Shown here: positions 1 to 62,694 of the stretch, in pieces
How positions within the stretch are numbered: the first letter of the stretch is position 1
Layout of the letters: the number at the start of each line of letters is the position of its first letter
Assembly: GCA_963799775.1 (NCBI GenBank)
Contig: CAWCYD010000003.1
Location: 1,856,001-1,920,000 of the forward strand
Reading direction: 5' to 3'
Source: an uncultured archaeon
GTDB taxonomy: Archaea; Thermoproteota; Nitrososphaeria; Nitrososphaerales; Gagatemarchaeaceae
Length of the DNA stretch: 64,000 nucleotides
Notes under the pieces: model-generated
The model's database searches: none
Told to the model about the DNA's origin: nothing
Seen by the model: only the letters and a program-made list of their open reading frames with translations
Translations under genes and position numbers: made by a program

Positions 1-3529
<3,529 letters not shown>

Positions 3530-3532
3530 CAA

Positions 3533-4435: not shown

Positions 4436-4496
4436 AGCGGGAGCCAAGTTCCGCCGCAGAAGTATTAAAGTGCCGAAAGGCGAACTGGCCCTATCA

Positions 4497-5060
4497 ATGC
4501 CCAAGGCCCGGAAGCGGACCGTCGTCGCGATAGGCTCGACCAACCCTGCCAAGAGGAAGGGGACGAGCCTCGCCTTCTCGCGCGTATTCAAGAACGTCCA
4601 GCTGAAGACGGTCGACACCACGTCGCTGGTCAGGGCCCAGCCCATCAGCCTAGAGGAGACCGTCGAAGGGGCGCAGGAGCGGGCCATCTTCGCCCTGGAG
4701 TCTGCGAGGCCTGACTTTGGCGTGGGCGTGGAGGCGGGCCTCATGGAGCTCGGCAAGGGCTGGCCGGACCACTACCTCAACCTCCAGATTGCCGCGGTGG
4801 TCGACAAGGCGGGGGCCCTCTCCTTCGGCTGCTCCTCAGGGTTCCCCATCCCCGCGAGGTTCGTCGAGAACCTGAGAGAGAGGCGCGAAGAGCTGGAGCA
4901 ATACGCGCACGAGCTGACGGGGGCCAAGAAGATCCGCGAGGAGCACGGGATCGTCTACCACCTCACAGGGAAGCATCTCTCGCGCGTGGAGATGACGGAG
5001 CAGTGCGTCTCGATGGCCCTGGTCCCGTGGCAGAACGCGAAGGTCTACGGGCTGACATGA
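4497..5060 (+). CDS. yjjX: Inosine/xanthosine triphosphatase (YjjX family)
   Basis: IGSTNPAK, QPIS..ET..GA..RA, GVGVEAG, GIVYHLT..LSR. Confidence 0.85.
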   Translation: MPKARKRTVVAIGSTNPAKRKGTSLAFSRVFKNVQLKTVDTTSLVRAQPISLEETVEGAQERAIFALESARPDFGVGVEAGLMELGKGWPDHYLNLQIAAVVDKAGALSFGCSSGFPIPARFVENLRERREELEQYAHELTGAKKIREEHGIVYHLTGKHLSRVEMTEQCVSMALVPWQNAKVYGLT

Positions 5061-5112
5061 CGTTTTCCGGCTTTTGAGAGGACGGTCACCGCAAGCCCGA
5101 GAGAAGGAGAAA

Positions 5113-5412
5113 TCAGGTCTTGAGCTTCGACCGGTTCTCGGACCAAGTGTAACCGCAGTGCCTGCACCTGAATGTCTCATTATGAGTTACTTCCTTGGCG
5201 ACCACGGTCTCCTCGTCCGAATCGGCCATTTCCCCGAGTCCTTCAATCGGCAAGTCTCTAGGAAGTAAATCCGGGCCCAGGTCGTCCCTGACCAGCTCCT
5301 GCGCATTGTTGTTGACCGCGACGGGAACCTCCTTTGTCTCAACCTTGTCGGCGGTCCGTTCGACTTCGAAACGCTTCCCGCACTGGGGACACTTCATCAG
5401 GAGGGTCGGCAT
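5113..5412 (-). CDS. Small zinc-ribbon protein
   Basis: CPQC and CRHC pairs. Confidence 0.6.
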   Translation of the reverse strand: MPTLLMKCPQCGKRFEVERTADKVETKEVPVAVNNNAQELVRDDLGPDLLPRDLPIEGLGEMADSDEETVVAKEVTHNETFRCRHCGYTWSENRSKLKT

Positions 5413-5521
5413 GTCAGGAGAAATCGCGTTCGTATTTCTTAAACCATTGGTGGGGCGGATATCACCCGTCATGCAACGCGGTCAGAAATCGCCCGAAGAT
5501 GCAACAGCACCTGTTTTCCCG

Positions 5522-5537
5522 TGGAAGGGTTTATATC
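5522..5537 (+). promoter_or_regulatory. Putative rRNA operon promoter (BRE/TATA)
   Basis: TTTATAT at 5530-5536 after a purine-rich tract, ~210 bp upstream of 16S. Confidence 0.45.
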
Positions 5538-5700
5538 CCGACGCGGCTGGTCGTGTTAGTTTGCGCATAGCTTGGCGGCGTCTGCGTAGAGCGGACGGGC
5601 GGAGCCCATTGCCATGAAACGTACGACCTCCAGATGCGCGTACAAAACGTGGAGATCTAACCGAAATGTTAGATCTGACATGGGCTTTGCTCAACAGACT

Positions 5701-5719
5701 AATTCCGCAGTTATGCGAG
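5701..5719 (+). other. 16S pre-rRNA processing stem, 5' strand of BHB
   Basis: AATTCC-GCAG-TTA-TGCGAG pairs with CTCGCA-CTGC-AAA-GGAATT (7277-7295) as a 3-4-3 BHB. Confidence 0.9.
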
Positions 5720-5746
5720 AATATTATCTTGCTCCCGATATAATCG

Positions 5747-7244
<1,498 letters not shown>

Positions 7245-7276
7245 TAGTGTAAAAACATCGGGAGCCAAGAGATATT

Positions 7277-7295
7277 CTCGCACTGCAAAGGAATT
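7277..7295 (+). other. 16S pre-rRNA processing stem, 3' strand of BHB
   Basis: Complementary to 5701-5719 with reciprocal 3-nt bulges. Confidence 0.9.
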
Positions 7296-7434
7296 AAAGT
7301 CGGTAGAGCAAGGCCTATGTCAGAGGTATGCAGCATCACACGAAGGTGTGATGCGAAGGGCAAGCGGGGTAAGGACGGGCCACGGGCGCGCCGTAAAAAT
7401 TGCGGGCGCGCGACGAGGGCACCCCCGTGATGAA

Positions 7435-7483
7435 GCCGTGCATAGGGTTCGCGCAAGCATCCGCCGGGGATGTTAATCATTCG
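7435..7483 (+). other. 23S pre-rRNA processing stem, 5' strand of BHB (single copy, in ITS)
   Basis: GCCGTGCATAGGGTTC-GCGC-AAG-CATCCGCCGGGG pairs with CCCCGGCGGAG-GCGC-AAT-GAACCC..TATGCACGGC at 11447-11482. Confidence 0.9.
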
Positions 7484-9547
7484 ACACAACGACGCCAAAT
7501 GGTGAATGGCTTGGCTTGGGTGGCGAGGAAGGGCGTGGCAAGCCGCGATAGGCTCTGGGGAGACGCATGCAATCTACGATCCAGAGATACCCGAATGGAG
7601 TATAATCCGCCGCAGTTGCGCAAGCGCTGCGGCGCGCCGAAAGGCGCGCGAACGCTGGGGAAGGAAACATCTGAGTACCAGCAGGAAGAGAAATCAATTG
7701 AGATCCCGTTAGTAGCGGCGAGCGAAACCGGGTTAGCCCAAACCGAATCCCTGCATGAAAGTGCAGGGAGATGTAGTGTTCGCCTTCAGCGTATGCGACC
7801 CTGCGACCAGTAGCCGAAGTTGCCTGGAATGGCACACAACAGAAGGTTATAGTCCTGTAAGCGAGCTGGGAGCGAGGTCGTGCTGAGGGCAGAGTAGCTG
7901 GATTCGTCAATGTCTAGCGAAGACGGAGGAAAGCAGCCTCCAAGGCTAAACACTACCCAAGACCGATAGCGCAAAAGTACCGCGAGGGAAAGCTGAAAAG
8001 TACCCCGAAAGGGGTGTTAAAAGAGCCTGAAACAATTTGGCTACAGACGTGCATCGCATGAAAGAGGTATGAATCCAACGCGAGGGGCCGCAAGGCCTCT
8101 CAAGGGGGGTTAAGTGCCTCAGTGTGGTGCGTTCCGTCTAGAAACACGGGCCAGGGAGTTAACTGTCATGGCGAGCCTAAGGGTTCAAAGCCCGGAGGCG
8201 AAGGGAAACCGAATCTCCGTAACGCCGCAAGGCGCGTGGGAGGTGGTCTGAAAGGGCCTACAGTCATGGCGGTTTAGACTAGAAACCAAACGATCGTGTC
8301 CAGAACAAGATGAAGCCGGGCGAAAGCCTGGTCGAGGTCTGCAAGGGTCTTAACGTGCAATTTAGTCCCCTGATTCTGGACAAGGGGCCAAAAGCCTATC
8401 TAGCTTGGTGATTGCTAGTTCCAATCGAAGCGGATCCCAGTCCTGTCTCCGTCGATGTAGTTCACGCTGTAGAGCACCAACGAAAAGACAAGGATCCGAA
8501 AGGGTCCACCTTTTTCTTGAACTCCGAATGTGTGAACGCAGTAGACGCGGGGAGGCGGGTTTATGTGGGGTAAGCCTCATAACCGAGAGGGGTTTAACCC
8601 AGACTAGAGTTAAGGTCCCCAAATTTGGGCTAAGTGTCAAGCAAAAGGGAGTCTTTGACCGAAAACAGCAGGGAGGTAGGCTTAGAAGCAGCCACCCTTC
8701 AAAGAAAGCGTAACAGCTCACCTGCCGAGGTTGAGGGCCCCGAAAATGGACGGGGCTCAAGCCCAGTACCGATACTCTGGACTGCCACCTTGTGGGTGGT
8801 ATGTGGTAGATTGGCGTGGTGATTGGGTAGAAGCTGGGCCGTGAGGTCCAGTGGACCGATTTCCAGTGCAGATCCTGGTAGTAGTAGCAGCGTAGTCGGG
8901 TGAGAATCCTGATCGCCGAAAGGACACGGTTTTCCTGGCAATGCGTCATCAGCCAGGAGTTAGCCGATCCTAAGAACGAAACCAACGTATTCGTTCGAAC
9001 GAGGGAATGCGGTTAATATTCCGCAGCCTCGTGCATTCCGATGTCCCGCAAGGGACGATATCGCCTCTGACGCTTCCGGATACGGTTTGCAGAGTTTATC
9101 GCTCTGTTTAATCTATTGAGGAGGAGGGAGTGTCGTAATGACGAGAACTCCTCCGAGAAGAGAATAGCGGCCCGTTGGGGTCGTTTACTGGATTCCAGGA
9201 GACAGTGAAAACAGAGGAATGAGAGGGGTGCATGAGATCGTACCTAGAACCGACACAGGTGATCCTAGGTGAGAAGCCTAAGGCGTATCGGGGAACTGTA
9301 GGTAAGGGAACTCGGCAAATTAGCCACGTACGATAACTAGAAGTGGTGCCTGCTTTCTTAATGTGAAATTGGGATAGCAGGTTGCAATAACGAGGGGGTC
9401 CCGACTGTTTAATAAAAACACAGTAAACCGCAAGTCCGAAAGGATGTGTACGGTTTATGAATCCTGGCCAGTGCAGGTACCTTAAACCTGGGTTCAACTG
9501 GGCGAAGGGCCTGTTAACGCCGGGAGTAACTCTGACTCTCTTAAGGT

Positions 9548-9836
9548 GACCACAGAAAGTTGCCTTAGCAAAATCTGGCTATATGCTGGAAAGTCTGAGA
9601 ATGCCAGGCTAGCTCGAGGGCGCAAGCTCTCGGGCTGACAATGCCATGGCTGCAGATAATCAGCAGGAAAGGCCCTTGGTCGCAAGACCGAGGGAATCCT
9701 CAGAGACTATACGCCAGAGATCGCAATCTAGTTGCGATCAAGATATAGTCCGAACTATGCAGCGATGCATAGAGGCTCGCGAAGGATGAGCCCGCCTCGA
9801 CGCAAGTCGAGGTCAAAGGAAGGAAGTAACAGAGTG
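9548..9836 (+). mobile_element. Group I intron at 23S L1931, 289 nt, no ORF
   Basis: Interrupts TTAAGGT^AGCCAAATG; P ATGCTGGAAA 9583, Q AATCAGCAGG 9658, R TCAGAGACTATA 9700, S AAGATATAGTCC 9740; P1 TAAGGT/GCCTTA with U-G wobble; terminal G. Confidence 0.93.
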
Positions 9837-10397
9837 AGCCAAATGCCTTGTCGGGTGAGTTCCGACGTGCATGAATGGACCAACGAGGGCCCCGCTGTCC
9901 CTATCTACGACCCGGCGAACCTACGTAAGCTGGACGAACAGTCCAGCAACTTCCATCGGGGAGAGAAGTCCCTGTGGAGCTTTACTGCAGCTTGTTGCTG
10001 TGATTCGGTCTTAATCGCATAGTGTAAGGGGGAGCCGCCATGTCGTCGCCTTCGGGTGACGAATAGGCACCAATGTAACACCCCTCCCTTGAGACTGGAT
10101 CGCTAACTCCTACGGGAGGACACCGGCAGGTGGGCAGTTCGGCTGGGGCGGCACCCCCTTGAAAAGATATCGAGGGGGCCCAAAGGTCGGCTCAGATGGG
10201 TCAGAACTCCATCGTTGACGGCAAGGCGAAAAGCCGGCCTGACAGGAAACTTAAACGCAGAGTTTTCTGCCACGAAAGTGTGGCCTAGCGATCATTCAAT
10301 CCTCACTGTTGGGGGCTGGATGTGACAGAAAAGTTACCCCAGGGGTAACAGGCTCGTCGCGGGCGAGAGCTCCAATCGACCCCGCGGTTTGGTACCT

Positions 10398-11008
10398 TGA
10401 CCCGCAAGGGTTCGGGGCAAAATCACGGTAACGCGATTTGAAGCATCGGCTTATAACGGCGAACTCCTCCTCTCGGAATGGACCACTGAGGATTACCGAG
10501 AGAGGACAACGCCGTGGGAAGTCTACGGTAAAGCGAGCTTTGCGCTGTCTTGAGCAGACAGCGTGGCAACTAAAACAGCCAAGAAAGTTCGCTCCTAAGG
10601 GCACTTCTTCTGACTGATGGGACAAAGACAGAGTAGGATTCGAAAACGAATTAACATCTTCCGGCAGCAACCATGTTGCCGAAAGGCAACGCGGATGCAA
10701 CGGGCGCAACCAGGCTACTTGCCGTCCTGCCATAGGGCGGGCCGGTCTATGCCAGGTTGTGGTTTTTGTCCACAGGTAGAAGGACGATCAAACCGTATGA
10801 CCCCGTAACGACTGAGGCGCGCAAATATTGCGGCCAATGAGATGGCCAGGGCTGTCGCATGACTCATGACGTTCCGACGTCGTGGGACACAAATCATGCG
10901 GCCTCGAAAAGGTCCCGGCCATCATACGCCGACCCCCCTATCGGCCCGAAAGGGAGTGCGGGGGGTGAAGACATAGTCTGATCCGGAAAGAAATTTCCGA
11001 TAAGATTG
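10398..11008 (+). mobile_element. Group I intron at 23S L2500, 611 nt
   Basis: Interrupts GGTACCT^CGATGTCGGCTC; exon ends in U and intron ends in G; R-like GTAACGACTG, S-like GAAGACATAGTCTGA. Confidence 0.88.
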
Positions 11009-11062
11009 CGATGTCGGCTCTTCCCATCCTGGTCCTGCAGCAGGGGCCAAGGGTGGGGCTGC

Positions 11063-11116
<54 letters not shown>

Positions 11117-11241
11117 CCTCTACCTGATGGAAGCGGAGGAACACTGCGGGGAAGCGCTGCCCAGTACGAGAGGAACAGCGGCGCGTGGCCTCTGGCGTAC
11201 CGGTTGTCCGAGAGGGCACCGCCGGGCAGCTAAGCCATCGT

Positions 11242-11274
<33 letters not shown>

Positions 11275-11560
11275 ACTCCCAAGAAGAGTGTTCCATCAGC
11301 ACATCCTTTCTCCGCAAGGGGAGGGGAGAGCTGTGGAGAGCGGCGATAGAAGATCGCGTTGAAGGGGTGGGGGTGTACGCTGGAAGCCCGCAAGGGCGAC
11401 CAGTTCAGCCCGTCCACTACCTATAGCTCAACGTGTGAATGAAATGCCCCGGCGGAGGCGCAATGAACCCTTTATGCACGGCGAATGCCCTGCATTTTCA
11501 ACAAGCTAGCGAGAGCTTTCGCACGGAATAATAGGTGCCCCGGTTATTCCTGCATCGAAG

Positions 11561-14052: not shown

Positions 14053-14624
14053 CTCGTCTCAAATGGAAGGATGCCAGGCGGAGGCGCAATGAACCTAGTA
14101 GCTAACAGAGAGGAGTCTGGACATACCAATCCTGATAATCCCAGTTTTCCTTTAGGACATACCACTTCCCGTTGTCTCCCTGATTAGTCCACTGCTGCTG
14201 GACATTGGCGGTCTCGTTGGTCGCACCGAAGATCTCCCTTGTGCCTACAAACACGTAGCTGAAAGTGGCATTGATTGTTGCTGTTCCGATGTTCTTCAAC
14301 ACAATATTCGAGACGGTCACAACGGATGGAGAAGAGCCGAAGTCTTGGAACTCCGAACCGTAGAGCCCACGAATGTAGAACCGTTCTTCAGGGTACCTGC
14401 GTAGTCCCCGTTGAGTACGAGGTAGTTGCAGATCTCTTCCCTTCCATAAAGTTTGAGCTGGATTTGCGCGGTGTTCAAGGACGAGTGCAACGAGACAACG
14501 GACGAGTTCGTGTAGAAATCCATCATGGCGTCAATGTTCTTGTCTTCGATTGCTTGCTCCCACTGATTGAGTTGGAGCTGCACTCGCGACTTGGCTTGAG
14601 AGGAGGACGCAGCCGACGAGTAAG

Positions 14625-15810
14625 CAGTATCTCCGAATGACATAGGGTCACCTCCGTCAGGTTGCCAATGGGATTAGGAATGTGAGGAGGAGGGAGACCT
14701 TGACCTCCAATGCGATGATATGCTCTTCATCGTCGCGTCCGTCCTCTCCATTGTCGTTGCGCTCTGAAGAGTTCAGGATGCACCATGCGTTGTATAGGCA
14801 TACTGCCACCGCGTAGTAGAGTAGCCTAACCGTGAAGCTCTTCGATTTCGTCCTCGGAAGGAAGATGTTGTGCTCTCTGTAGGCGGTCTCCACTCCCCAA
14901 CGGGTCTTGTAACGCTTCAGCAGGCGCTTCGGCCTGCACGACATGTTCGTGGCGAAGAGGTAGCTGATCTTCGTCTCCTCGTCGTCGACCCTGACGAGCT
15001 TGAACGGTCTGTCGCAAGGATAGGAGACAGATTGACCGTCCTTGAGGTCGATCCTCTTCGTCAGCCGGTTGGGCGTGAAATGGATTGCATACAGGTATCC
15101 GTTCTCCTGGAGCCAAGAGGGGAGCTCGAGCGATGAGAACCCTCCATCGAAGAGGAGATACCTAACCCTGATTCCCATGTTCCTTATCCGGTTGAGGGCG
15201 TCCTCGATGTAATCCAAGAGATACTCCCTGCTCTTGATGGGCGTCAGGACGATCGTGAGCCTCCTCCCATCGGCGAGGATGCTCGCGGTGAGGTACTGGT
15301 AAGCGTAGCAAGAGCCGGCCTTTGGCCTCGTCCCGTTGACCATGTCGGTCTCATTATCGCCATAAAACATCTGGTCGTGCCAATCAAACGCAATCGGGAC
15401 CGGTCTCTTCAGCAACCCCTTTCTCTTCAGCTCGCCTACCTGCTCCTCGAGGACGATGGAGACGACGCTCTGGAGCTCGTATCTCTCGATGCTCTTGAAG
15501 CGCATAAGCGCGGTGTCGGAGTTCGGTACCCCGGCTCCAAACTTATTGGAGACGTTGCTCATTCCTTCCGCGTAGGCATTGAGTACAGACGAGTTGACAA
15601 GGAGACGGATATAGTCCGCCTTCGTGTACAAGTAGCTGGGCTTCACCTCGAAGCACAGTAGCTGGGGCAGGCATCGCATCATGACGGTATCGAAGCCTCT
15701 GGCTAGATGATTGGAGATCATAGCTGAGGCTTCGGGGTGAAGACTCCCTACGCCCCAAAATCATAACTTGTTGAGCGACGGCTAAAATCCGCACTCATTC
15801 GGAGATACTG
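14625..15810 (-). mobile_element. ISH3-family (IS4 superfamily) insertion sequence, 1186 bp
   Basis: Perfect 16-bp terminal inverted repeat CAGTATCTCCGAATGA (14625-14640 / 15795-15810); TAAG target duplication (14621-14624 / 15811-15814). Confidence 0.92.
14657..15721 (-). CDS. DDE transposase (ISH3-like)
   Basis: IAFDWHDQMFYG, LLFDGGF, YKTRWGVETAYR. Confidence 0.92.
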   Translation of the reverse strand: MISNHLARGFDTVMMRCLPQLLCFEVKPSYLYTKADYIRLLVNSSVLNAYAEGMSNVSNKFGAGVPNSDTALMRFKSIERYELQSVVSIVLEEQVGELKRKGLLKRPVPIAFDWHDQMFYGDNETDMVNGTRPKAGSCYAYQYLTASILADGRRLTIVLTPIKSREYLLDYIEDALNRIRNMGIRVRYLLFDGGFSSLELPSWLQENGYLYAIHFTPNRLTKRIDLKDGQSVSYPCDRPFKLVRVDDEETKISYLFATNMSCRPKRLLKRYKTRWGVETAYREHNIFLPRTKSKSFTVRLLYYAVAVCLYNAWCILNSSERNDNGEDGRDDEEHIIALEVKVSLLLTFLIPLAT

Positions 15811-16271
15811 TAAGAGACGTAGATGGCTGACGCGAGTACAACTAGGACGATTACGAGTGCGACCCTCACTAGACACTTGAGGCCGACACCAGTTCTTGCA
15901 GGCTGCACCGGGTGTTGGTATCGCACAAATATTTACGAGTTGTGAGGACGGTCGCTTGCTCTCGCCCTTCACAATGGTTATCCGATGTCGTGGCTCGCTA
16001 GCTTCTCAGGTGGCTTGGGTTGGCATTGGCAGACGAACGCGGTTAACTTGGTGGCCGACTATTTTTTCTGGCTTGAGATGTCTGCCGCAGGACTTTTCTC
16101 TGTCATCCTTCTGCAACGCAAGAGAAATGTCGAACTCCACACACTGAACAGCTGAGAGCTACCTTGCGGGAGGCGCAATGAACCCCTATGTGCGGCGACT
16201 GCTTTTCTCCGGCTCGGCAAGACTCGACGTTCGGACAAAGGCATTTATCGAGCAACGTCATTCACAAAATC

Positions 16272-44778: not shown

Positions 44779-45336
44779 TCAGTAGACCATGAGCCCTTTT
44801 TCTTCGAGCATCACGTGCAGGTTGTTCACGGACCTGTAGACGTCGGCCTCCCTCTTCGCTCCAGTGCAGACGAGCTTCCCAGAGGCGAAGAGGAGTATCA
44901 CGGTCTTGGGGTCGGCCATCCTGTGTATCAGGCCGGGGAACTGCTCGGGTTCGTACATTGACTTCGGCAGCGTCCTGGCCGCCTCCTCTAGGTGGACCTT
45001 CCCGCCGAGGTTCGCCGATGCGACCATGTTCTGTATCGTTATCTCCGCCTCGTTCTTGATGGAGATGCCGCCCTTCTTCAGCCTCCTGACGACCTCGTGC
45101 ACGGCCTCCCTTGACTGCTTCTCAGACTTCGCGCCGGTGCAGACCATCTTCCCCGAGCTGAAGATCAGGGTGGCCGTCTTCGGGCTTTTCAGTCTGAAGA
45201 CCAGCCCAGGGAACTGGTCGGGGTGGTACTCCACGTCGACGAACTTCTTGGTTATCTCGTTCAGGTCGACCCTCTGGTTTATCGAGGCAGAAGCGACGAC
45301 GTTCTCGATGCTGATTATCGCCTTTGTTTGGGGCAT
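44779..45336 (-). CDS. tbp: TATA-box binding protein
   Basis: Two repeats of NxVAS..YxPxQFPGL..LxFxSGKxVCTGAK. Confidence 0.97.
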   Translation of the reverse strand: MPQTKAIISIENVVASASINQRVDLNEITKKFVDVEYHPDQFPGLVFRLKSPKTATLIFSSGKMVCTGAKSEKQSREAVHEVVRRLKKGGISIKNEAEITIQNMVASANLGGKVHLEEAARTLPKSMYEPEQFPGLIHRMADPKTVILLFASGKLVCTGAKREADVYRSVNNLHVMLEEKGLMVY

Positions 45337-45765
45337 GCGCAGACGCGCAAGGCTCGGCACTATATATAGTATATATATCGAGCCTGGACGGTCTCGATGA
45401 CCTGTCGGTTTCATCTCTTGGGGCGGGAAAAGGCATAACTACGGCGTCCTCGTCTGGCTTCCGAGGTTGTCAGACAGCGCGTCAGAAGAAGAGAACCTGA
45501 GGAAGCTATACGACCAGGCGCGCGTGCAAGGAAACAAGAAGAAGAAAAAGGAATACAAGGAAAAGCTCGCCGAACTGAACCGACGCAAAAAGTCAGAGCA
45601 GCGAGAGAGCAACAGATCGAAAGGCTAGGTTTCCTGCGATAGCGGCGCCAAGAGATGCCCCAGGCGGAGGCGCGATGAATCCCTACGCCCGGTAGCTCCG
45701 CATCAACGATTCTTGCGGCCTTATAAGGCGCCGCGCCTACAGCCAGCTCGAAGGCCACACCATAC

Positions 45766-47744: not shown

Positions 47745-48116
47745 ATGCGGACGCAAGCGCAAGAGGAGACGGAGGCAGAGGATTGGGCGCAGACCGAGGA
47801 ACGCCGCAGAAGGATTTACGAGGAGCTGTGGCACGCCGACGAGGAGCGGGTCAGAAGGCAGCGTGAGAGAGACCCCTACAATAATCGCCGAAGAGAGGAA
47901 AACGACGACCGTCGCAATCCGTTCGACCTAGGCGCCGTCAAAGAGATTCCAAGGGCAACCCAGGTCTTGGGCGTCAGGGTCGGCGCAACCGAGGTCGAGA
48001 TCAAGGCAGCTTACAAGAGGATGGCCATGGTGTGGCACCCGGACAGACCGGGGGGATCGGCAGAGAAGATGAAAGACCTCAACGAAGCGAAAGAGATCCT
48101 GCTGCAGGGGCTTTGA
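47745..48116 (+). CDS. J-domain protein
   Basis: [22 protein letters not shown]. Confidence 0.8.
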
Positions 48117-51872: not shown

Positions 51873-52763
51873 GTGATGCTGACCATTACGTCGACCAGGA
51901 AGCTCAACTCGGGCACGGAGATACCCGCGCTCGGGCTCGGCGTGTTCCAGGCGCCGCCCGGCAGGGTCACCCAGGAGGCCGTGAAGTTCGCCCTGAAGAC
52001 GGGCTACCGGCACATCGACACGGCGAGGGTCTACGGGAACGAAGAGGACGTCGGCCGGGGGATCAGAGACAGCGGGGTGCCGCGCGAGCAGGTCTTCGTC
52101 ACCACGAAGCTCTGGAACGCCGACCAGGGCTACGACTCTGCCCTGTCCGCCTGCGAGGCGAGCCTGCGCCGGCTCGGGTTCAGCTACATCGACCTCTACC
52201 TGATTCACTGGCCGGTCCCGGGGCTCAGGGGCGAGTCCTGGAGGGCGCTCGTGGAGCTCCAGCGACGAGGCTCGTGCCGGGCCATAGGCGTGAGCAACTA
52301 CACGGTCAGGCACCTCGAAGAGCTATCCGACAGCTCGGATGTCACCCCCGCCGTCAACCAGGTCGAGTTCAACCCGTTCCTCTACCAGAAAGAGCTGCTC
52401 CGCTTCTGCAGCAGCAGGGGGATACAGCTCGAGGCCTACAGTCCACTGACCCGCGGGCACAAACTCGACCACCCCGTGGTCCTCGACGTCGCCAAGAGGC
52501 ACTCCAAGAGCCCCGCGCAGGTCATGATCCGGTGGGGCCTGCAGCACGAGCTCGTCGTGATACCAAAGTCGACCCGCCCCGAGAGGATAGAGGAGAACAG
52601 CCGGGTCTTTGACTTTGACCTCTCGCCGGCCGACATGACCAGTCTCGACTCTCTCAGCGAGGACCTGCACACGGTCTGGGACACCCACGGACGAACCCTA
52701 GGAACGCAGGGAGGCATGAGTGAAATGCCCAGGCGGAGGCGCAATGAACCTTATGCATGGTGA
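51873..52763 (+). CDS. Aldo/keto reductase
   Basis: GYRHIDTA.YGNE, DLYLIHWP, IGVSN, IPKS; C-terminus runs through a repeat. Confidence 0.93.
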   Translation: MMLTITSTRKLNSGTEIPALGLGVFQAPPGRVTQEAVKFALKTGYRHIDTARVYGNEEDVGRGIRDSGVPREQVFVTTKLWNADQGYDSALSACEASLRRLGFSYIDLYLIHWPVPGLRGESWRALVELQRRGSCRAIGVSNYTVRHLEELSDSSDVTPAVNQVEFNPFLYQKELLRFCSSRGIQLEAYSPLTRGHKLDHPVVLDVAKRHSKSPAQVMIRWGLQHELVVIPKSTRPERIEENSRVFDFDLSPADMTSLDSLSEDLHTVWDTHGRTLGTQGGMSEMPRRRRNEPYAW

Positions 52764-53454
52764 ATTCTGTACTGCTCTTATCCTTAAAGAACTAAAAGTG
52801 TCAGATGGGGACACTCGCCACATCGTGGACTCATCAAATCCGGCTGGAAGGATTGTCGACGACGCCTATAACCGGAAGAGAAGATCGGTTATTGCGAATA
52901 CCAAGGTTCTAGTCTTCGGACCGGGTCCAGGGAACGAAAATCCCGGATTTCTCGAACGAGAAGCAATAAAGGATACGCTAAAACAAGCAGGCTGCAGGGC
53001 TGATTACCCTGAATCAATTCTAATTGGGGGTAACGCAGTATTCGGTGAGAGCATACTAATCGGCGATTACAATCTTGTCTTCATTTTGTTGATGGGTCTA
53101 GGCTCATAGCATAGAATTCTCGCATTTCGTCCAGAGAGAGTTTGTAGCACAAAAGGTTAGATTGTTCCAAGAAAAGAAGTACAAGATGACCGAAAGTTTC
53201 CTTAACGAAGTGCTCGAGCCATTCTGCGCATTGTACAGACAATGCTATTATTTTGATGATCGGAATTCGTTAATCTCAGCTGCCAAACAGTGCTTCGAAG
53301 AATACGTCTCATTCGTAGTAATTATCGGTCTCCGTCCCTACTAACATCGCCGGGGAACTCAGTGGTTCACTGATCAAGTCAATAAATTTAAATATCAAGG
53401 CGAGTCCAAAATTGCATCTCCGCTGATTGAAATTTGGAAGTAAGTAACGAAGGC

Positions 53455-54894
53455 ATGGACTTCATAGAAGCCGAAAAAATCGCCGCAGTGATGCGGATGG
53501 CCAAACCCAACGTCACCGTAATAGGTGTCGGCGGGGCCGGAAGCAACATTGTCTCCTGGCTGAAAGAACGAGGGATCTCCGGAGGCAAACTCATCGCTGC
53601 TAACACAGACGCAGCACACTTGAGCATCACCAAGGCGGATCGCAGGATTCTCATGGGTGAGAAGCTCACGCACGGCCAGGGCGCCGGAGGGTACCCTCAG
53701 CGCGGTGCGGAAGCCACAAGGGAGTCAATCGGCGACTTTCAGAAGGAAACACAAAACAGCAACATCATCTTCCTTTGCGCAGGCCTCGGAGGAGGCACTG
53801 GAACGGGCGCAATCGAAGTCCTCTCCAAGGAACTAGCAAGGCAGGGCCGCCTAGTCATCGGTGTCGTGACTTTGCCGTTCTCGTCCGAGGCGTACAGGTA
53901 TGATAACGCGAAGAACGCTCTGAAGGTACTCCGCCAGTACTGTGACACCGTAGTAGCCATTGAGAACACCAAACTGTTCAAGGTTGTCGAAAACTTCCCT
54001 GAGCAAAACGATGGCAAAACCAAGTCGGAGGTTCCCAAGTTCAACTCCGAAGAGGCAAATCTTAGAATCAAGGCGCTGAACGACAAAACTAGGCGAGAAA
54101 TAATAGGAATATTATACGTCAATGGACCCACGTTTCACACTGAGATTGCGAAACGCGTTGGGCTCAAGCCAAACGAACTATCCTATCATCTCGGGTTGTT
54201 AGTTGATGCTGGATATCTACGACATGTTTACTCAGATAAGCGGATTGGGAAATCATTCTCGACATACTCCGTGACCGAATTAGCCATCGGGTTCTTGGAT
54301 TTCATTGGTGCCAAGGCAGAATTAGATTTTGCAATGAAAGCGCAACAGCCCTCCGTTCGCGACGAGCCTGATTCTCGTAGGACACACGCATTAGAAGTGC
54401 GGACGTTTGCGGTTGCAAACGAGTTGGCAGGTCAGTTCATCAAGGGGTTGACAGAGACCATAACCACGGCCAGTCTCATCAACATCGACTACGCGGACCT
54501 TAGGGCGATATGCGAGCGCAAGGGCCTAGCAAGTATCGGTGTTGGAGAGGGGAAGAGCTCCGACAGGGTCGAGGTCGCGATCAGGCGCGCTATCGCAGGA
54601 CAGCTGCTGGACATCAAGGACGTCACCAAGTCACAAGGGGTGCTGGTCCACGTGACAGGTAGCTCGGACCTAACACTGGAGGAGGTCACGAAGGCCGGCG
54701 AACTTGTAACCAAGTCGTTACCTCCGAACGTCAGGATTGTCTGGGGCGCACGCGTAGACCCGTCTCTGGAAGGCCGTGTCAAGTGCATGGTCATGCTCAC
54801 CGGCGTCGAGAGCGCTCTCCTCGCACAGCAAGAATACAACTTCTCGTTCGGCCCAATGAAGAGCGAAGCCAAATCAGGATGGCGGAAAAACTAG
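53455..54894 (+). CDS. ftsZ: FtsZ homolog with an internal winged-helix insertion
   Basis: GVGGAGSN, GAGG, GLGGGTGTG, INIDYADL, IVWGA; ~130-aa ArsR-like insert. Confidence 0.9.
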   Translation: MDFIEAEKIAAVMRMAKPNVTVIGVGGAGSNIVSWLKERGISGGKLIAANTDAAHLSITKADRRILMGEKLTHGQGAGGYPQRGAEATRESIGDFQKETQNSNIIFLCAGLGGGTGTGAIEVLSKELARQGRLVIGVVTLPFSSEAYRYDNAKNALKVLRQYCDTVVAIENTKLFKVVENFPEQNDGKTKSEVPKFNSEEANLRIKALNDKTRREIIGILYVNGPTFHTEIAKRVGLKPNELSYHLGLLVDAGYLRHVYSDKRIGKSFSTYSVTELAIGFLDFIGAKAELDFAMKAQQPSVRDEPDSRRTHALEVRTFAVANELAGQFIKGLTETITTASLINIDYADLRAICERKGLASIGVGEGKSSDRVEVAIRRAIAGQLLDIKDVTKSQGVLVHVTGSSDLTLEEVTKAGELVTKSLPPNVRIVWGARVDPSLEGRVKCMVMLTGVESALLAQQEYNFSFGPMKSEAKSGWRKN

Positions 54895-55078
54895 ACATGA
54901 CGGCGAACCATCTTCTCGTGATTGGCCACAACCTCTTCCGGCGACCAAAGCTCAACGTGCGAGTGAAATGCCCCGGCGGAGGCGCAATGAATCCTTTATC
55001 CATTGCAAACATCCTATTCATTAGGTGATTTGGTAATTCATCATTGTTATAAGGAATCAGAAGGGGAAAGCCCCTTCC

Positions 55079-55918
55079 TTGAGGTACCTGATGGTGCTAA
55101 GTTTACACCATGACCACTGGAACGAACCTAGAGGTGAAGCTCATTATACTATCCGAATGCTGAAGAGCGGACTTTCGCGTACGAACTTGGTTGAAAATAC
55201 CCCCACACTTTTCGTGCAAAGAAATTGGGACACGAACGCAGTAGAGGGTTGTTGGGAAGGTAAGGTTCACGATTTTCTTTTCAAGAAAGATGAAAAGGGC
55301 AGGGTCGCAGTGTGGTTTAGTTACGACTTGGACAGACAAGTTTCTCTTCCTGCAGAATACGCAAACTTCCCTGTCGGTTGGCATTGTATCGAGAATATCC
55401 CAGCACAACGGCACAAGTTCGACCCGCCTTTCGTAAGCGACTTGATTGACACTAATGATTGGCAGATATTCGAGACACATGTTTCATGGCTGCTGAAGTT
55501 ACTTGGAGTCCACAACCTATACGCATTTGACAGAGAGAATCAGCCTGGAAGGCCCGACGGGTTCTTCAAGTTAGGGCGTTCAGCCATCATTTACGACGCC
55601 ACGCTCAATGGTGACTTCGTCTCGGCAAAGAAGGACCAAGTCAACAATTACTGCAATCAATTCAAGGCAGGATACCTCGACTATGATGGTGGGACAGTAG
55701 ACGTTCGAGAATGTGAAAAGCAAGTCTGGATAGTGACCAAAGGCACTACCCATATCCTAAGGCGAGTTGATGACATCACGATTAAAGAAGTCAATGTTCA
55801 AGATCTTCTAGACCTCAATGAAAAACGAATATTGGAAAATCTTCATGAAGACCAATTGAGCTACGAACTTCGAAATTTGGGTCGTGTTGAGAGAACCGCC
55901 TACGCTCATCATATCTAG
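55079..55918 (+). CDS. Putative restriction-endonuclease-like protein
   Basis: FE..LL..LG..GRPDG..IYDA; AT-rich. Confidence 0.55.
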   Translation: MRYLMVLSLHHDHWNEPRGEAHYTIRMLKSGLSRTNLVENTPTLFVQRNWDTNAVEGCWEGKVHDFLFKKDEKGRVAVWFSYDLDRQVSLPAEYANFPVGWHCIENIPAQRHKFDPPFVSDLIDTNDWQIFETHVSWLLKLLGVHNLYAFDRENQPGRPDGFFKLGRSAIIYDATLNGDFVSAKKDQVNNYCNQFKAGYLDYDGGTVDVRECEKQVWIVTKGTTHILRRVDDITIKEVNVQDLLDLNEKRILENLHEDQLSYELRNLGRVERTAYAHHI

Positions 55919-56399
55919 CTCCACATGTCATTTGAATCCTCAACGGGAGTCGCAATGAACCCTAGTCTAGCTTGGACGCTTTGACAGTCACAATCAGTAG
56001 ATACTTCATTTTAATCCCAAAGGCAGTCGGCCTTTAAACGACGACGAAGTCCCGCTTGTTAGACGGCACCCTGACCTCTTTGGCGCAGGTAGCTTTGACC
56101 TCTATGTCTGGACCGCTCCCGACCAGACTAGGGGTGATTCCTTTAGGTGCGAGAGTCCAATTACTGTCAATCTGGACGATTTGTTGCGCTACAATAGCTT
56201 GAAGGACGCGGCTCAAGATGTTTCCTCGCAATCGGATATTGAGGAGACCAAGTCTCCACATCTCGTGGTGTAATGCATCTCATTGAGAATCTCGGCGGCT
56301 CTCGCAGCAGCCTCCGTGACCATTTTGTGGTCCAAGTTCATCTGGACATATCTCCCCAATCACCGAATGCCAATCGCCCTCGTCACACCAAGCCAGACC

Positions 56400-56708
56400 T
56401 CAGAACTGGAACTTGATGTAATCATAGTCCTCTGCTAGTTCGTCGAAGCCTGCGTCGTACTCGGAAACGAAGGCTACCTTGAACTGCTTCGCAAGATGGT
56501 CTAGTATCCCCTCAACATTGTTGTCGCCGTACCTGGCGAATTGCGTGTACCCGTTCGAAGCCCGCTGCGCCCAGATGCGGTTTTTGCCGTTGGTCAAGCA
56601 CGCGCTGCTGGGCGTCGTGAATTCCACCATCTCCTCACGAACTTCCCCTTTCATCCCCTTGATTTTGTCAAAGGGAATCGGTTGATCAGGCAGGTAGTAT
56701 GTGCTCAT
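56400..56708 (-). CDS. Hypothetical protein
   Basis: ORF with host-like codon use. Confidence 0.45.
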   Translation of the reverse strand: MSTYYLPDQPIPFDKIKGMKGEVREEMVEFTTPSSACLTNGKNRIWAQRASNGYTQFARYGDNNVEGILDHLAKQFKVAFVSEYDAGFDELAEDYDYIKFQF

Positions 56709-58080: not shown

Positions 58081-59946
58081 ATGCAGGCGAATTTGTCCCA
58101 AGCACTTATGATTCCCAACAAGGTTCCCAAGCTGGACTTACTTTCTGCCAAGTTTGAAGAATGGGGAAACATCTCAGATCCAGTAAAGAGGTCCAAAGCT
58201 GTTACCGAGTTCTATATGGCTAAGATTCTCGAACCCACTTACTATGGATCCAATGGCGTGCTCACTGACGGCGCAAATGATGGCGGACTCGACGCTTATC
58301 TAGAGATCGATGCAGAGAAGAAAATAATTCTTGTGCAGTGTGTCTGGCTTGACCAAGGTGGCTCATCACTTTCCAAGAAAGACGGAAGAAAATTGCTCCA
58401 CTTCTACGAAGATTACCTATCCAAGAACGAAATTGCGGGTCTGAAGGAAGATGTCGCACAATTTGTTCGGAAATACAATTCGATTTTGAAAGGCTACGAA
58501 TTAGAATTCAGATATGTGACCAATGGCGTTGTCCAAAAGGCTGACGCGTCTGCGTATCCAGCAGCCTTGCAAGTGATAGGTCCAACAATGCTCGATATCG
58601 AACTTTACTGCGCATTCGCGGAAGTCGAACCAGTCAAGAACACCATAGAATTTCGACTTGACGATAAGAAATATTTCGAATGGACGATTCGTACCGATCC
58701 GAATCAGAAGGTGAACGTACTTCAATGCATGGTGAGTGGATTGGATCTCGCTCAAGCGTATCGGATCCACAAAGACAAACTTCTCATGAGGAATCTCCGA
58801 TTTCTTTTGGGAGGAAAAATAAACGAAAGGATTTACGAGACCGCAGAGAAACCTGAGGAGTCCTCCAAGTTTTATCTTTATCATAATGGTATTAGCGTGA
58901 CTTGCGATAAGTACGAGTTTGTGAATAGAGAAGAAGGCGTCGCCGTGAAACTTACTAACGCCCAAATTGTCAATGGGGGACAGTCGACTGCTACTCTTTC
59001 TAAGATCCCTGACGCCATTCTTGACACGATTAGACTGCCGTGCAAAATCTCTCAGACAACCGACACAGGACTTGAACAGTCAATAGCAGAATCAAATAAT
59101 ACACAGAATTCCATAAAACCACTGGATCTAATCGCAAACTCAGACTCGCTCGTTTTTCTTCAAAACTTTGCGGCTGGTATGATTACTCCTCCTATATTTT
59201 TGAAGCGCAAATCGGGCAAAGAGGACTGGAAAAATGTGAAGATGGGAGAAGGTCTGAAAAAGCCCCCATCACTGCGAACTATTCACTATAAAGACGCTGC
59301 ACAAGGATTCTTTGCCTTCTCGGGACATCCCGTGAAAGCCTATGGCGCTCCCACGCCCTATATCACCCCCAATTCGAACGGAATATACCTCAGTATGGTT
59401 AGATACCCTGATCCCAAATTAATGATCGCCGCGGGGCTTCTCACCAAGTACGAAAACGAAGTTGATACGGTCGTTCCAAAATTCACAAAGTACTGGTCTA
59501 CATGGGCTGTGGCTGCATTCGGCCACATTTACAATTATGAGATGACAAACAACAAAACAAAGAAACAGGCGCTTTCAAAAATACTTTCTGAGAAGGGGCC
59601 CGAAACTTGGAAACACCCAATCCGGGGAGAACTCATCAAGCTGTTCGAAGAAATATTTCCGAAGTATTATCCAAAACTACAATTTGGAGAAGACTATCTC
59701 ATGCAAGGATTCTTCAAAGGACAGCAAGAAGTCTTCGATATCGATAAGGTTCGCGGCATCGCGCCGACGGATATCTTGAGTTACATTGGTGTGGGAAAAT
59801 CCGATTTGAAATTGAGCGAGCTCAAGAACGCTCAAAAAATTTCGTTTACTCGATACGATGTCGACTTCGCTGTATTCGCCGCCGCAATGCACAAGGAATT
59901 GGCAGCGGATTCCTCGATACTCAATAGAATTATTGCTTCATTCTGA
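58081..59946 (+). CDS. AIPR family protein
   Basis: DGGLD, NLR..L, FYLYHNGIS, QIVNGGQS, NTQN.I. Confidence 0.88.
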   Translation: MQANLSQALMIPNKVPKLDLLSAKFEEWGNISDPVKRSKAVTEFYMAKILEPTYYGSNGVLTDGANDGGLDAYLEIDAEKKIILVQCVWLDQGGSSLSKKDGRKLLHFYEDYLSKNEIAGLKEDVAQFVRKYNSILKGYELEFRYVTNGVVQKADASAYPAALQVIGPTMLDIELYCAFAEVEPVKNTIEFRLDDKKYFEWTIRTDPNQKVNVLQCMVSGLDLAQAYRIHKDKLLMRNLRFLLGGKINERIYETAEKPEESSKFYLYHNGISVTCDKYEFVNREEGVAVKLTNAQIVNGGQSTATLSKIPDAILDTIRLPCKISQTTDTGLEQSIAESNNTQNSIKPLDLIANSDSLVFLQNFAAGMITPPIFLKRKSGKEDWKNVKMGEGLKKPPSLRTIHYKDAAQGFFAFSGHPVKAYGAPTPYITPNSNGIYLSMVRYPDPKLMIAAGLLTKYENEVDTVVPKFTKYWSTWAVAAFGHIYNYEMTNNKTKKQALSKILSEKGPETWKHPIRGELIKLFEEIFPKYYPKLQFGEDYLMQGFFKGQQEVFDIDKVRGIAPTDILSYIGVGKSDLKLSELKNAQKISFTRYDVDFAVFAAAMHKELAADSSILNRIIASF

Positions 59947-60824: not shown

Positions 60825-62694
60825 CTAAACTTCCAGTCTCGATCGGAAGTACTCTTCCGTCGCCTTGTCCAGGAAGCACACGTAGCATCCCTTCATCCCC
60901 CGCGTTAGCAGGACCCGATATGTGTTCTTCACGTTCCGAAGGAACTGCTCCCTGTCCCTCTTGACGACGCTGTCGTACGACTGGCTGGGGTCGCCCACCC
61001 AGGCCTTGCTCCGGGCGTCCCACGTCAGGTCTCTCCCGAAGATCACACCCACATAGTCGAACTCGAACCCCTGTATCGTGTAGATGCAGCCTATCTGCTC
61101 GACTCCCTTCGGGTCGTAGGCCCATAGGTTGCTTCGTGGTATCCCCGGCGCCAATCTTCCCGACTCGGCCTTGGCGTTCCATGGCCGACGATAGTCCCCG
61201 ATGACGACATCATCCACGAGCGTGCCGTCACTGTTCGGATCGGACCAAGGCCAGCAGAACCCAGCGACCATCCTGGCAGAGTTCGGACTCTCAGAGTTCT
61301 TGCGCTCTATCTCTCTGTGGAGCTCCTGCGGGCTGCCAAATATTTTGAACTCCATGTTGTCCTCTTTCGTATGGATGCGGTTGGCGGTCTCCCGTATCCC
61401 TAGCACGTCGTCGACCCAGTTGAGGTAGCCGTCGGAGCCGCCGCACCTGAACTGCGTCTTCAGCTCGAACTCGAACACCTCATCAGTGAACTCTCTTGCC
61501 GCTTCTCTGATCAACTCCGTGCTACCTATCTCCTCGGGTCTGACAACCTGGTGGTCGTCGATGAAGAAGATCGTCACCTTGGAAGCCCGTAAAAGTTCTT
61601 GGATCTGCGGGACGTCTGACCTCGCGTCTCTTCTCGTGTACCTGCTGTTGCTGGTCCTGCGTATCCTGTGGGCCTCGTCGCAGACGAGCACGCCTATCTG
61701 GTTCTCTCCGTAGCCCGAGAAGCTGTTGAAGTACTTGAAGAGAGGCGAGGCCCGCTGCCCGACGACCCTGCGCAGCGTGGTCGTGAACGAAGCCGACCCG
61801 GTGGCATGGTAGACCGATATCTTCTTCGAGAGCAGCTCGGCTATCACGTTAAGGGCGATGGCGGACTTTCCCGTCCCTGGGCCGCCCCTGACGATTATCA
61901 CCGACTTTTTGCCCAGCTTCGCGCTCTTCTTTGCCCTGTCCAGGATGGTGTTGTAAGCGGCAATCTGCTCCTCCAGCAGATTGAAGACGTGCCGGCCCTC
62001 TATCATGTTCCGCGCATGCGCCAGCAATTTCTTCGACGGCGCAATCCTGCTGGAGGAAAACCTGTCAAGGATCAGCTTCCCGCCTCCTCCCGCTAGTCGG
62101 GACTTCAGGTAGTCCGCGAGGCTTGCAAGGTCCATCCTTCGCGAATAATGGATACTCGGAGAGTATCTTCGCGAACCGCTCGTCAAAGAGCACGGCGTCG
62201 CTCCGAGGGTAGTTGTGGCAATAGCATGCCGAGGAGAGGCCGAGCGGCGGGGTCTCCTCGAAGGCCTCGACGAAGTCCTTCAGGTACATGTGATATCCTC
62301 CCACCTGATAGGAGGGGTGCGCCTCCATGCGGTTGGCCCCTCCCACGAACGTGACCACGTTGTTCTCGACGTCGCACTCCTCCGCCTTCGACCACTGCTT
62401 CAGCTCCATCAGGACGACGTTCTCCCCGCCCTTGGGCCCCTTGCCGAATAGCATGCAGTCTATCCTCTGATTGGAGTAGGGGAGCTCGTATTCCACCACT
62501 ATCATGTCTTGCTTGAGCGACGCGTATTCCACGGCGTTCTTCATGAACTGGAGCGAGTTTGTCCAGGATTGCACCTCGCGGGGGTTCGCCATCCTGTAGT
62601 AGTAGGTCTCGTAGGCCTTCTGGAGTTTGTCCGGCATCTCGTTCTTGAGCACATCCTCGTTGAACTGCTCGACCGTGCCGGTGTAGAGCTTCAC
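60825..62694 (-). pseudogene. DUF2075 (Schlafen group 3-like) nuclease-helicase, frameshifted near 62130
   Basis: N-terminal RID..ELKQW; GGPGTGKS, CDEAHR, QFRC, IYTIQGFE, YRVLLTRG. Confidence 0.85.

Follow-up and report, generated by a model that had tools for sequence, protein, structure and literature searches.

FtsZ is among the best-studied cytoskeletal proteins and is recognized by its signature motif GGGTGTG and by the T7 synergy loop NxDxxD; permissive internal insertion sites have been published for the E. coli protein. Tubulin-family GTPase filaments that work with a winged helix-turn-helix (wHTH) DNA binder are known from TubZ-TubR-tubC (TubZRC), the type III partition systems that occur on plasmids and phages of Bacillus, in which TubR binds tubC via its wHTH and recruits TubZ (accessible text of PMC9178275). 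No description of a natural FtsZ with a folded domain inserted in the globular core was found in the accessible parts of the literature. Here, a chimeric ftsZ-wHTH gene was analyzed from an uncultured soil archaeon of the Gagatemarchaeaceae (order Nitrososphaerales), located in a window of 64,000 nt (positions 1,856,001 to 1,920,000 of contig CAWCYD010000003.1, assembly GCA_963799775.1). The gene encodes a true FtsZ with a complete wHTH set in frame into the H6-H7 loop, and its substitution pattern indicates that it is a real, selectively maintained extra gene.

The FtsZ identity of the chimera was supported by Pfam profiles for the Tubulin/FtsZ GTPase domain (PF00091; residues 19-178, E 8.7e-39, 134.2 bits against a cut-off of 33) and for FtsZ_C (PF12327; residues 357-452, E 6e-25, 87.8 bits against a cut-off of 27), with residues numbered on the 479-aa form of the protein (P0001). 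The translation contained GGAGSN, GLGGGTGTG at residues 110-118, and the T7 motif NIDYAD at 343-348, the latter two both within near-invariant columns of a 122-sequence alignment, and the catalytic and nucleotide-binding motifs were unchanged. This was consistent with a first, sequence-only reading of the locus, which had described all FtsZ motifs as intact. The coordinates in that reading were correct in general and left out an alternative TTG start upstream (Table 1), which aligns with the ATG start of the closest host paralog, L002. Compared with canonical archaeal FtsZ (L002 and the Methanocaldococcus jannaschii structures 2vap/1fsz), the chimera shares the GTPase domain, helix H7, and the T7 loop as well as the C-terminal domain, and differs by a wHTH of net 131-132 aa in the H6-H7 loop, by local remodeling of H6 and the start of H7, and by residing in an accessory cassette and not at a core locus.

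Relative to the ordinary FtsZ paralogs of the host, the insert lies between KLFKVVENFP (the end of H6) and FAVANEL (the start of the core helix H7). At the protein level the insertion point falls between L002 residues 192 and 193 with a gap of 132 aa, and at the DNA level 34 nt of L002 are replaced by 427 nt (53985-54411) for a net gain of 131 codons, in agreement with the proposed insertion of about 130 aa between segments that are nearly adjacent in ordinary FtsZ (net 131-132 aa). The insert was more AT-rich than its surroundings, as first noted (GC 0.44-0.47 versus 0.56-0.61 in the FtsZ parts), and its GC content at third codon positions (GC3) was 0.50, whereas the FtsZ parts on either side had values of 0.66 and 0.72 and L002 one of 0.715. 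It was open in the FtsZ frame only, with four to nine stops in each of the remaining five frames, and this single open frame argues that the insertion is not a chance event.

The wHTH was matched by HTH_20 at residues 210-253 (32.2 bits; Pfam cut-off 27) and by HTH_24 (28.2 bits; cut-off 21.9), along with a match to the ArsR profile HTH_5 slightly below its cut-off (21.3 bits versus 22) and an NCBIfam HTH_metalloreg match of 33.1 bits that was below its cut-off of 55. ArsR-family chains in the PDB matched the insert at E 0.02-0.2, and insert residues 22-80 aligned with residues 3-63 of 3f6o and 2p4w, both of the ArsR family (E 0.02-0.03), with the recognition-helix pattern H-L-x-x-L-x-x-(A/S)-G kept. 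By this alignment, the insert looks like an entire small regulator between two linkers of about 20 residues each. A PADLOC match of the chimera to Csa3 reflects the same wHTH. The sequence-only reading of the architecture, with an ArsR-like winged helix within the FtsZ core, was upheld. The canonical ArsR/SmtB metal or metalloid sensing site is a cysteine-based motif; the insert sequence contains no cysteine and is thus not a canonical thiolate metal sensor. An intein was considered and rejected, as no intein family was present among Pfam hits at E<=1 and the junction residues (PEQNDG at the start and LEVRT/FAVANEL at the end) are not intein-like, so that the earlier statement that intein termini are lacking held. 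True FtsZ inteins among the homologs (P0045 and P0087) are placed in the G-box region instead.

The host genome is a metagenome-type assembly of three contigs (2.47 Mb, 81.67% complete). Its archaeal origin was reflected in the window by 16S and 23S rRNA genes, a TATA-binding protein gene, and a thermopsin gene, and the nearest FtsZ relatives were labeled Nitrososphaera, Thaumarchaeota, or Nitrososphaerales. The genome encodes five tubulin-family genes comprising three FtsZ-like proteins (348-351 aa), a more distant one (351 aa), and the chimera. The closest paralog, L002 (G000:C3:995k), shared 87% amino acid identity with the chimera. By the Nei-Gojobori method (NG86), the ratio of nonsynonymous to synonymous substitutions (dN/dS) against L002 was 0.13 (dS 0.63, dN 0.082), and the N and C parts taken separately gave 0.12 and 0.13, respectively; the selection figures cover the FtsZ parts (345-codon body) alone. 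Against five congeneric L002 orthologs, which have open frames of 351-360 aa and no insert, the chimera gave dS 0.53-0.74 and dN 0.064-0.089, compared to dS 0.16-0.42 and dN 0.009-0.042 among L002 and these orthologs, and dS to the next paralog was about 1.4-1.6. With branching depth judged from the pairwise dS and dN matrices, these ranges place the chimera in the L002 orthogroup with a split no later than the radiation of the species sampled, indicating that it is an old paralog or xenolog of L002 that separated at about genus depth. The chimera has evolved faster at the protein level with purifying selection still clear, and its own branch has an estimated dN/dS of roughly 0.13-0.2.

Site conservation pointed in the same direction. 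The chimera kept 77 of the 80 columns that were at least 85% conserved in 121 FtsZ homologs, where control sequences deviated at zero to four. Among 165 columns conserved in 76 close homologs it deviated at 17, and eight of these cluster at the junctions (170-183 and 317-319), substitutions that look like accommodation of the insert.

Structure prediction reproduced the FtsZ fold around the insert. An AlphaFold2 model based on the 122-sequence alignment had a mean predicted local distance difference test (pLDDT) score of 83.7, with the FtsZ body (residues 1-180 and about 310-460) at 96-99 and H7 unbroken over residues 305-337. The insert (181-309) formed a separate six-helix excursion at pLDDT 38-65; it was folded without homologs, five small wHTH relatives having been dropped from the alignment because they were misplaced across FtsZ columns. 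The structural check proposed in the sequence-only reading bore out the FtsZ part and left the insert itself at low pLDDT. With a 4-sequence alignment instead, the pLDDT was 44.7. Foldseek returned M. jannaschii FtsZ 2vap as the best match (E 7.5e-38, TM score 0.89 on the target), and all 50 of the top 50 matches listed were FtsZ. In a complex prediction, two copies of insert residues 195-305 scored 0.44 versus 0.52 for the single control.

The sequence-only reading had offered two functional alternatives, a DNA-binding tubulin-family fusion and a tolerated in-frame insertion, and both stay candidates. In the most likely reading, with chances judged to be about even, the chimera would be a polymerizing FtsZ with a DNA-binding domain on display and would combine the roles of TubZ and TubR in a single chain. 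The protein would bind GTP and assemble head-to-tail, either by itself or together with the host FtsZ, to which it is 87% identical. Its wHTH would project from the side or top corner of each subunit, turning filaments into multivalent DNA binders or anchoring them to DNA. The H6-H7 loop is also involved in lateral contacts, so that bundling is probably altered by the insert too. Candidate cellular roles are DNA positioning, regulation, and interference with the host FtsZ. In the accessible text of the sources, the H6-H7 loop contributes to contacts between antiparallel protofilaments (PMC12216130), and a monobody of ~10 kDa that binds the loop together with H7 and the C-terminal domain decorates protofilaments with the GTPase largely unaffected (PMC10333351). 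By analogy, a 12-15-kDa domain on long linkers is plausibly compatible with head-to-tail assembly and with altered lateral association. Engineered FtsZ sandwich fusions and the FtsZ-monobody complex similarly carry a folded domain of ~10-27 kDa at or on the FtsZ surface with FtsZ not destroyed, although these are laboratory constructs or binders whereas the chimera is natural and covalent. If the chimera assembles, the H6-H7 loop would be a natural permissive site for internal tagging, and the protein would be the first tubulin-family filament with a built-in DNA-binding module.

The likeness to TubZRC is one of components, a tubulin-family GTPase filament and a winged-helix DNA binder. In the chimera the wHTH lies inside a loop of the GTPase core of one chain, whereas TubR is a separate adaptor for the tail of TubZ; the chimera has the GTPase of a true FtsZ, with a Tubulin_2 match of 16.5 bits versus a cut-off of 27; and the host is an archaeon with no iterated centromere near the gene. 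Membership in TubZRC was rejected on the sub-threshold Tubulin_2 match, the fused wHTH, and the lack of iterons in 52000-56500, although the two may work alike.

No second protein with the insert of the chimera was present in any set searched. A search of a 5.8-billion-protein set with residues 180-330 among proteins of 263-839 aa returned the query alone (one of 427 candidates), and the insert by itself matched no protein of 78-249 aa. In 60 related genomes, the 26 non-self matches were at most 42% identical, with open frames of no more than 357 aa. When the best 150 of 18,501 hits to representatives were compared, the query was the only protein with an insertion at the H6-H7 position, and of the best 120 of 1,642 close hits it alone had helix-turn-helix domains; the ESM Atlas gave no usable hit. 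The sequence-only reading had named the lack of any homolog sharing the fusion, together with a lack of expression, as grounds for giving it up, and the first half of that pair was found here. An apparent second insert-bearing FtsZ in the congener G011 was rejected, as it proved to be a frameshifted ortholog of the L004-type paralog without insert (L054, G011:C5:626500-633500, 3007-4129; frameshift near residue 268), and this split FtsZ could be a pseudogene or an assembly error. On sequence grounds the chimera is so far a unique internal-domain variant of FtsZ, for which a function is plausible.

Other FtsZ proteins carry a wHTH at their N-terminus. In a scan of 25 long FtsZ homologs, two (P0059 and P0064) had such a domain, and a third protein, P0191 from a 360-kb contig, was 58% identical to the chimera and belonged to the same thaumarchaeal FtsZ group. 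Its N-terminal extension of 129 aa was a homolog of the P0064 extension (E 1.6e-9). The three extensions were mutually homologous (E 1.6e-9 and 6.6e-7) and of the ArsR/TrmB/MarR class. They share with the chimera the pairing of FtsZ and wHTH, and differ in that the wHTH is a terminal add-on unrelated to the insert by BLAST, which gave no similarity between the insert and 15 N-terminal extensions (best E 0.54, for P0015). The P0191-type wHTH was common as a free-standing protein: of the 301 genomes of the order, 87 encoded it, and two of these 87 (G275 and G286) are unpublished. These comparisons indicate that the N-terminal FtsZ-wHTH proteins are sporadic independent fusions, neither a conserved family nor an operon, and the repeated fusion of wHTH to FtsZ argues for the chimera as a maintained gene. 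Further FtsZ variants included P0004 with a 235-aa N-terminal extension from a Nitrososphaerales metagenome-assembled genome, the tandem double FtsZ proteins P0002, P0005, and P0006 (744-840 aa), a fusion of D-aminoacyl-tRNA-deacylase and FtsZ (P0035), and an FtsZ-AAA ATPase fusion of 1278 aa (P0016).

Several observations weigh against a maintained DNA-binding filament. In the accessible text of PMC4832351, the H6-H7 loop touches H10 of the next filament subunit, so that assembly could be impaired instead, and the insert was modeled at low confidence only. The NCBIfam ftsZ equivalog TIGR00065 scored 292.3 bits versus a cut-off of 295.2, a shortfall of 3 bits in a match that consists of two stretches split by the insert. 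No centromere-like iterons and no tandem or iterated repeats were present in 52000-56500. P0059, P0064, and P0191 are themselves singleton clusters, and a conserved wHTH-ftsZ gene pair behind P0191 was rejected, as ftsZ lay within 1.5 kb at none of the 12 closest free-standing loci. As the chimera is a singleton, its insert may have arrived long after the gene arose, and the insert GC3 is compatible with a recent arrival. A search for sequencing runs listed three soil-metagenome DNA runs of one study and no RNA run; over 53300-55000, their contigs covered parts of the FtsZ flanks, mostly with differences indicative of relatives, and the downstream repeat was present at high depth, while no contig covered 53927-54439.

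One alternative is that the wHTH is a tolerated passenger, a small regulator gene that landed in frame in a permissive surface loop of an FtsZ paralog that works, or once worked, as just one more FtsZ, and has no function of its own, maybe recent and en route to loss. The fusion was unique in all sets searched, the insert, with its GC3 of 0.50, is like the low-GC cassette DNA around it (0.44-0.49) and unlike the FtsZ parts, the array in which the gene resides (described below) consists of accessory DNA where many genes lack a known family, and the site tolerates a bound 10-kDa protein (accessible text of PMC10333351). A passenger would leave unexplained a complete wHTH with an intact recognition-helix pattern, 142 stop-free codons where the other five frames have four to nine stops, the eight of 17 lineage-specific changes at conserved columns that flank the insert as in accommodation, and the independent fusion of other FtsZ proteins with wHTH, and this explanation was considered possible, if on balance somewhat unlikely. 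It is quite unlikely that the chimera instead acts as a filament poison, with the domain at the H6-H7 corner blocking the top or lateral face while the protein joins host polymers via its T7 face and caps or unbundles them; in this way a mobile cassette could interfere with the host cytoskeleton for addiction, defense, or competition. The conserved T7 loop and C-terminal domain, the 87% identity to the host FtsZ, and the toxin-antitoxin genes in the array and defense-type genes adjoining it would suit such a role, but the GTP-pocket residues, all of them kept, would be needless for a pure capper, the well-formed DNA-binding domain would be needless as well, and no antidote partner gene was recognizable in the cassette.

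A transcription factor with an FtsZ sensor, in which the wHTH binds an operator and GTP-dependent self-association sets valency or occupancy, appears very unlikely. No palindromic operator stood out upstream of the gene, where short repeat pairs occurred at chance level only, and purifying selection over the whole 345-codon FtsZ body including the polymerization faces exceeds what a sensor needs, despite the resemblance of the insert to autoregulatory small ArsR-type and Csa3-type regulators and the presence of HTH_20 and AsnC-type small regulators in the array. An assembly artifact, in the form of false joins in the contig from FtsZ reads into a wHTH gene and out again, would be in line with the missing soil-metagenome contig over 53927-54439 and with a metagenome-type assembly that is 81.67% complete. 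The reading frame is kept across both junctions, with the insert open in the FtsZ frame only, and both FtsZ flanks represent one allele unlike every other copy in the genome (dS 0.46-0.83 to the nearest), and hence do not stem from a collapse of L002 reads. The contig has a length of 2.06 Mb, and a 250-nt contig of run X1 matched 53404-53653 with no differences, although X1 is maybe the source sample and hence not independent. An artifact was accordingly regarded as extremely unlikely.

Division in this archaeal order is thought to depend on Cdv/ESCRT and not on FtsZ. A more far-reaching proposal, improbable as it stands, is that the FtsZ paralogs of the order act on DNA and that the chimera is a self-contained, single-polypeptide DNA-positioning machine spread between genomes as a mobile cassette of the 23S-anchored array. 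It would form a GTP-driven filament in which every subunit grips DNA via the embedded winged helix, and the independent N-terminal wHTH-FtsZ fusions would represent separate routes to this end. The chimera also bears on the role of multiple FtsZ paralogs in Nitrososphaerales-type archaea.

The gene was flanked by two copies of an array repeat (Table 1), in keeping with the earlier suggestion that it is carried as a cassette. The repeat core (with at most two mismatches) occurred in 45 copies on the forward strand between 11451 and 54975 and once on the reverse strand elsewhere in the window, and an 18-nt version gave 41 matches versus 0.51 expected; a degenerate copy was present near 55938. 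Spacing between repeats was 352-2243 nt (median 840.5), the FtsZ cassette being the largest. The array begins 4 nt past the 23S rRNA gene (7478-11442), and the repeat is related to it in that the left arm copies the 23S 3' end and the core and right arm correspond to the 3' strand of the 23S processing helix. The flanks of the 23S gene (7435-7487 and 11433-11482) pair over 45 bp at -71.6 kcal/mol with the repeat core on the bulged center, and the repeats flanking ftsZ pair in silico with the 23S 5' flank at -58.9 (upstream) and -56.0 kcal/mol (downstream). Every cassette boundary copies the 3' strand of the helix and could pair with the single 23S 5' strand in a read-through transcript, and an RNA-level role of the repeats is possible. 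The GGAGG...ATG of the repeat was rejected as a general start codon, as an ATG was present in 32 of 45 repeats with a median ORF of 19 aa and reached at least 60 aa in four of the 32.

Table 1. Coordinates of the chimeric gene, its cassette, and other features of the window.
Feature	Position	Strand	Evidence or remarks
Chimeric ftsZ-wHTH gene	53434..54894	+	486 aa from TTG (53434) or 479 aa from ATG (53455); end includes the stop codon
FtsZ N part: GTPase domain through H6	53434..53985	+	Pfam; DNA 89.6% identical to L002; pLDDT 96-99
Insert (142 codons): N-linker, complete ArsR/HTH_20-type winged helix, C-linker	53986..54411	+	Without homology to L002
wHTH core, P0001 residues 210-256, recognition helix KPNELSYHLGLLVDAGYL	54082..54222	+	Pfam HTH_20/HTH_24/HTH_5; alignment to 3f6o and 2p4w
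FtsZ C part: H7, T7 loop NIDYAD, C-terminal domain, tail	54412..54894	+	DNA 81.7% identical to L002
AT-rich TATA-like box AATAAATTTAAATAT	53381..53395	+	39-53 nt upstream of TTG; found by eye
Upstream boundary repeat	52718..52748	+	Array core GGCGGAGGCGCAA at 52732 and right arm TGAACCTTATGCATGG
Downstream boundary repeat	54961..54991	+	Partial left arm GGCGACCAAAGCTCAACGTGCGAGTGAAAT resembling the 23S 3' end; core at 54975
ORF-A, 121 aa, doubtful gene	52744..53109	+	ATG inside the upstream repeat; no family matched
TATA-binding protein gene as cassette	44779-45414	-	Full-length; PF00352, E 9.1e-60
DnaJ-domain ORF inside the array	47745-48116
DDE transposase PF01609	14657-15721	-	Within a ~2 kb array stretch between repeats (14077-16166)
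AIPR/AbiU-like protein gene just past the array	58081-59946	+
Schlafen-group-3-type helicase just past the array	60825-62186	-	Matches PADLOC Nhi, AbiO, and PDC-S41 models
Group I intron within the 23S rRNA gene	9517-9772	+	Rfam RF00028, 77.5 bits
Pyruvate:ferredoxin oxidoreductase beta-type subunit gene	1454-3529	+	Split by a LAGLIDADG-domain intein

The cassette genes were unrelated to each other and lay on both strands, including PIN/VapB/MazE, CorA, GNAT, TBP, AsnC, thermopsin, FtsZ, and many without a family. Further small regulators encoded in the array were an HTH_20 protein and one of AsnC type; the array also carried toxin-antitoxin genes and abutted defense-type genes. The chimera shows that the arrays of this family anchored at the 23S gene shuffle paralogs of core cell-biology genes (FtsZ and TBP) besides small accessory genes. 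Within and next to the FtsZ cassette, ORF-A, a 60-aa ORF, and the 279-aa ORF of the next cassette had no Pfam or PADLOC family. The AT-rich box in the intergenic stretch 53110-53433 (GC 0.41) is a possible archaeal promoter element.

The repeat was present in 31 of 36 other genomes of the host family, with up to 68 copies, and in none of 24 genomes from other families of the order. In the complete one-contig genome G007, 34 of 37 repeat copies were located directly downstream of the 23S gene on the same strand. Smaller repeat clusters occurred elsewhere in the host genome, and two adjoined paralogous tyrosine recombinase modules, L032 (G000:C3:118000-128500, 2905-7470) and L033 (G000:C3:1382000-1390000, 2722-5700), in which a tyrosine recombinase bearing a zinc ribbon at its C-terminus is followed by a DnaJ-domain gene, one or two further genes, and then an array repeat. 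These enzymes are candidate recombinases of the array. A 70%-identical recombinase in G020 lay ~600 nt from an array repeat, and the recombinase family was found in 12 of the 36 family genomes at E<=1e-20 and, as more distant matches, in six of the 24 others.

In being a long one-strand array of short accessory cassettes with one recombination-site-like repeat and no adjoining integrase, the array resembles integron cassettes and clusters of attC sites lacking integrases (CALINs), including the archaeal integrons of Ghaly et al. (2022; accessible text of PMC9668308), which are attC-type. It differs in that its repeat consists of the 23S 3' end and the 3' strand of the processing helix and not of an attC hairpin, and in its candidate recombinases, which are tyrosine recombinases encoded together with a DnaJ-domain gene at other sites of the genome. 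An attC-like hairpin was rejected, since eight single-strand DNA folds of four repeat units (z -0.81 to +2.40) were no better than shuffles, and PF00589 had five matches in the genome and none in the window. Without an attC-like fold and without a recombinase gene in the window, the array is best described as an integron-like or tandem-accretion-like platform and is not an integron by definition. A literature search by keyword only did not find this type of array built from 23S 3'-end repeats, and the term "rRNA" does not occur in the main text of Krupovic et al. (2019).

Other features of the window (Table 1) included a DDE transposase gene and a DnaJ-domain ORF inside the array, and genes for an AIPR/AbiU-like protein and a Schlafen-group-3-type helicase just past it. 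Upstream of the array, the 23S rRNA gene contained a group I intron, and a pyruvate:ferredoxin oxidoreductase beta-type subunit was split by an intein.

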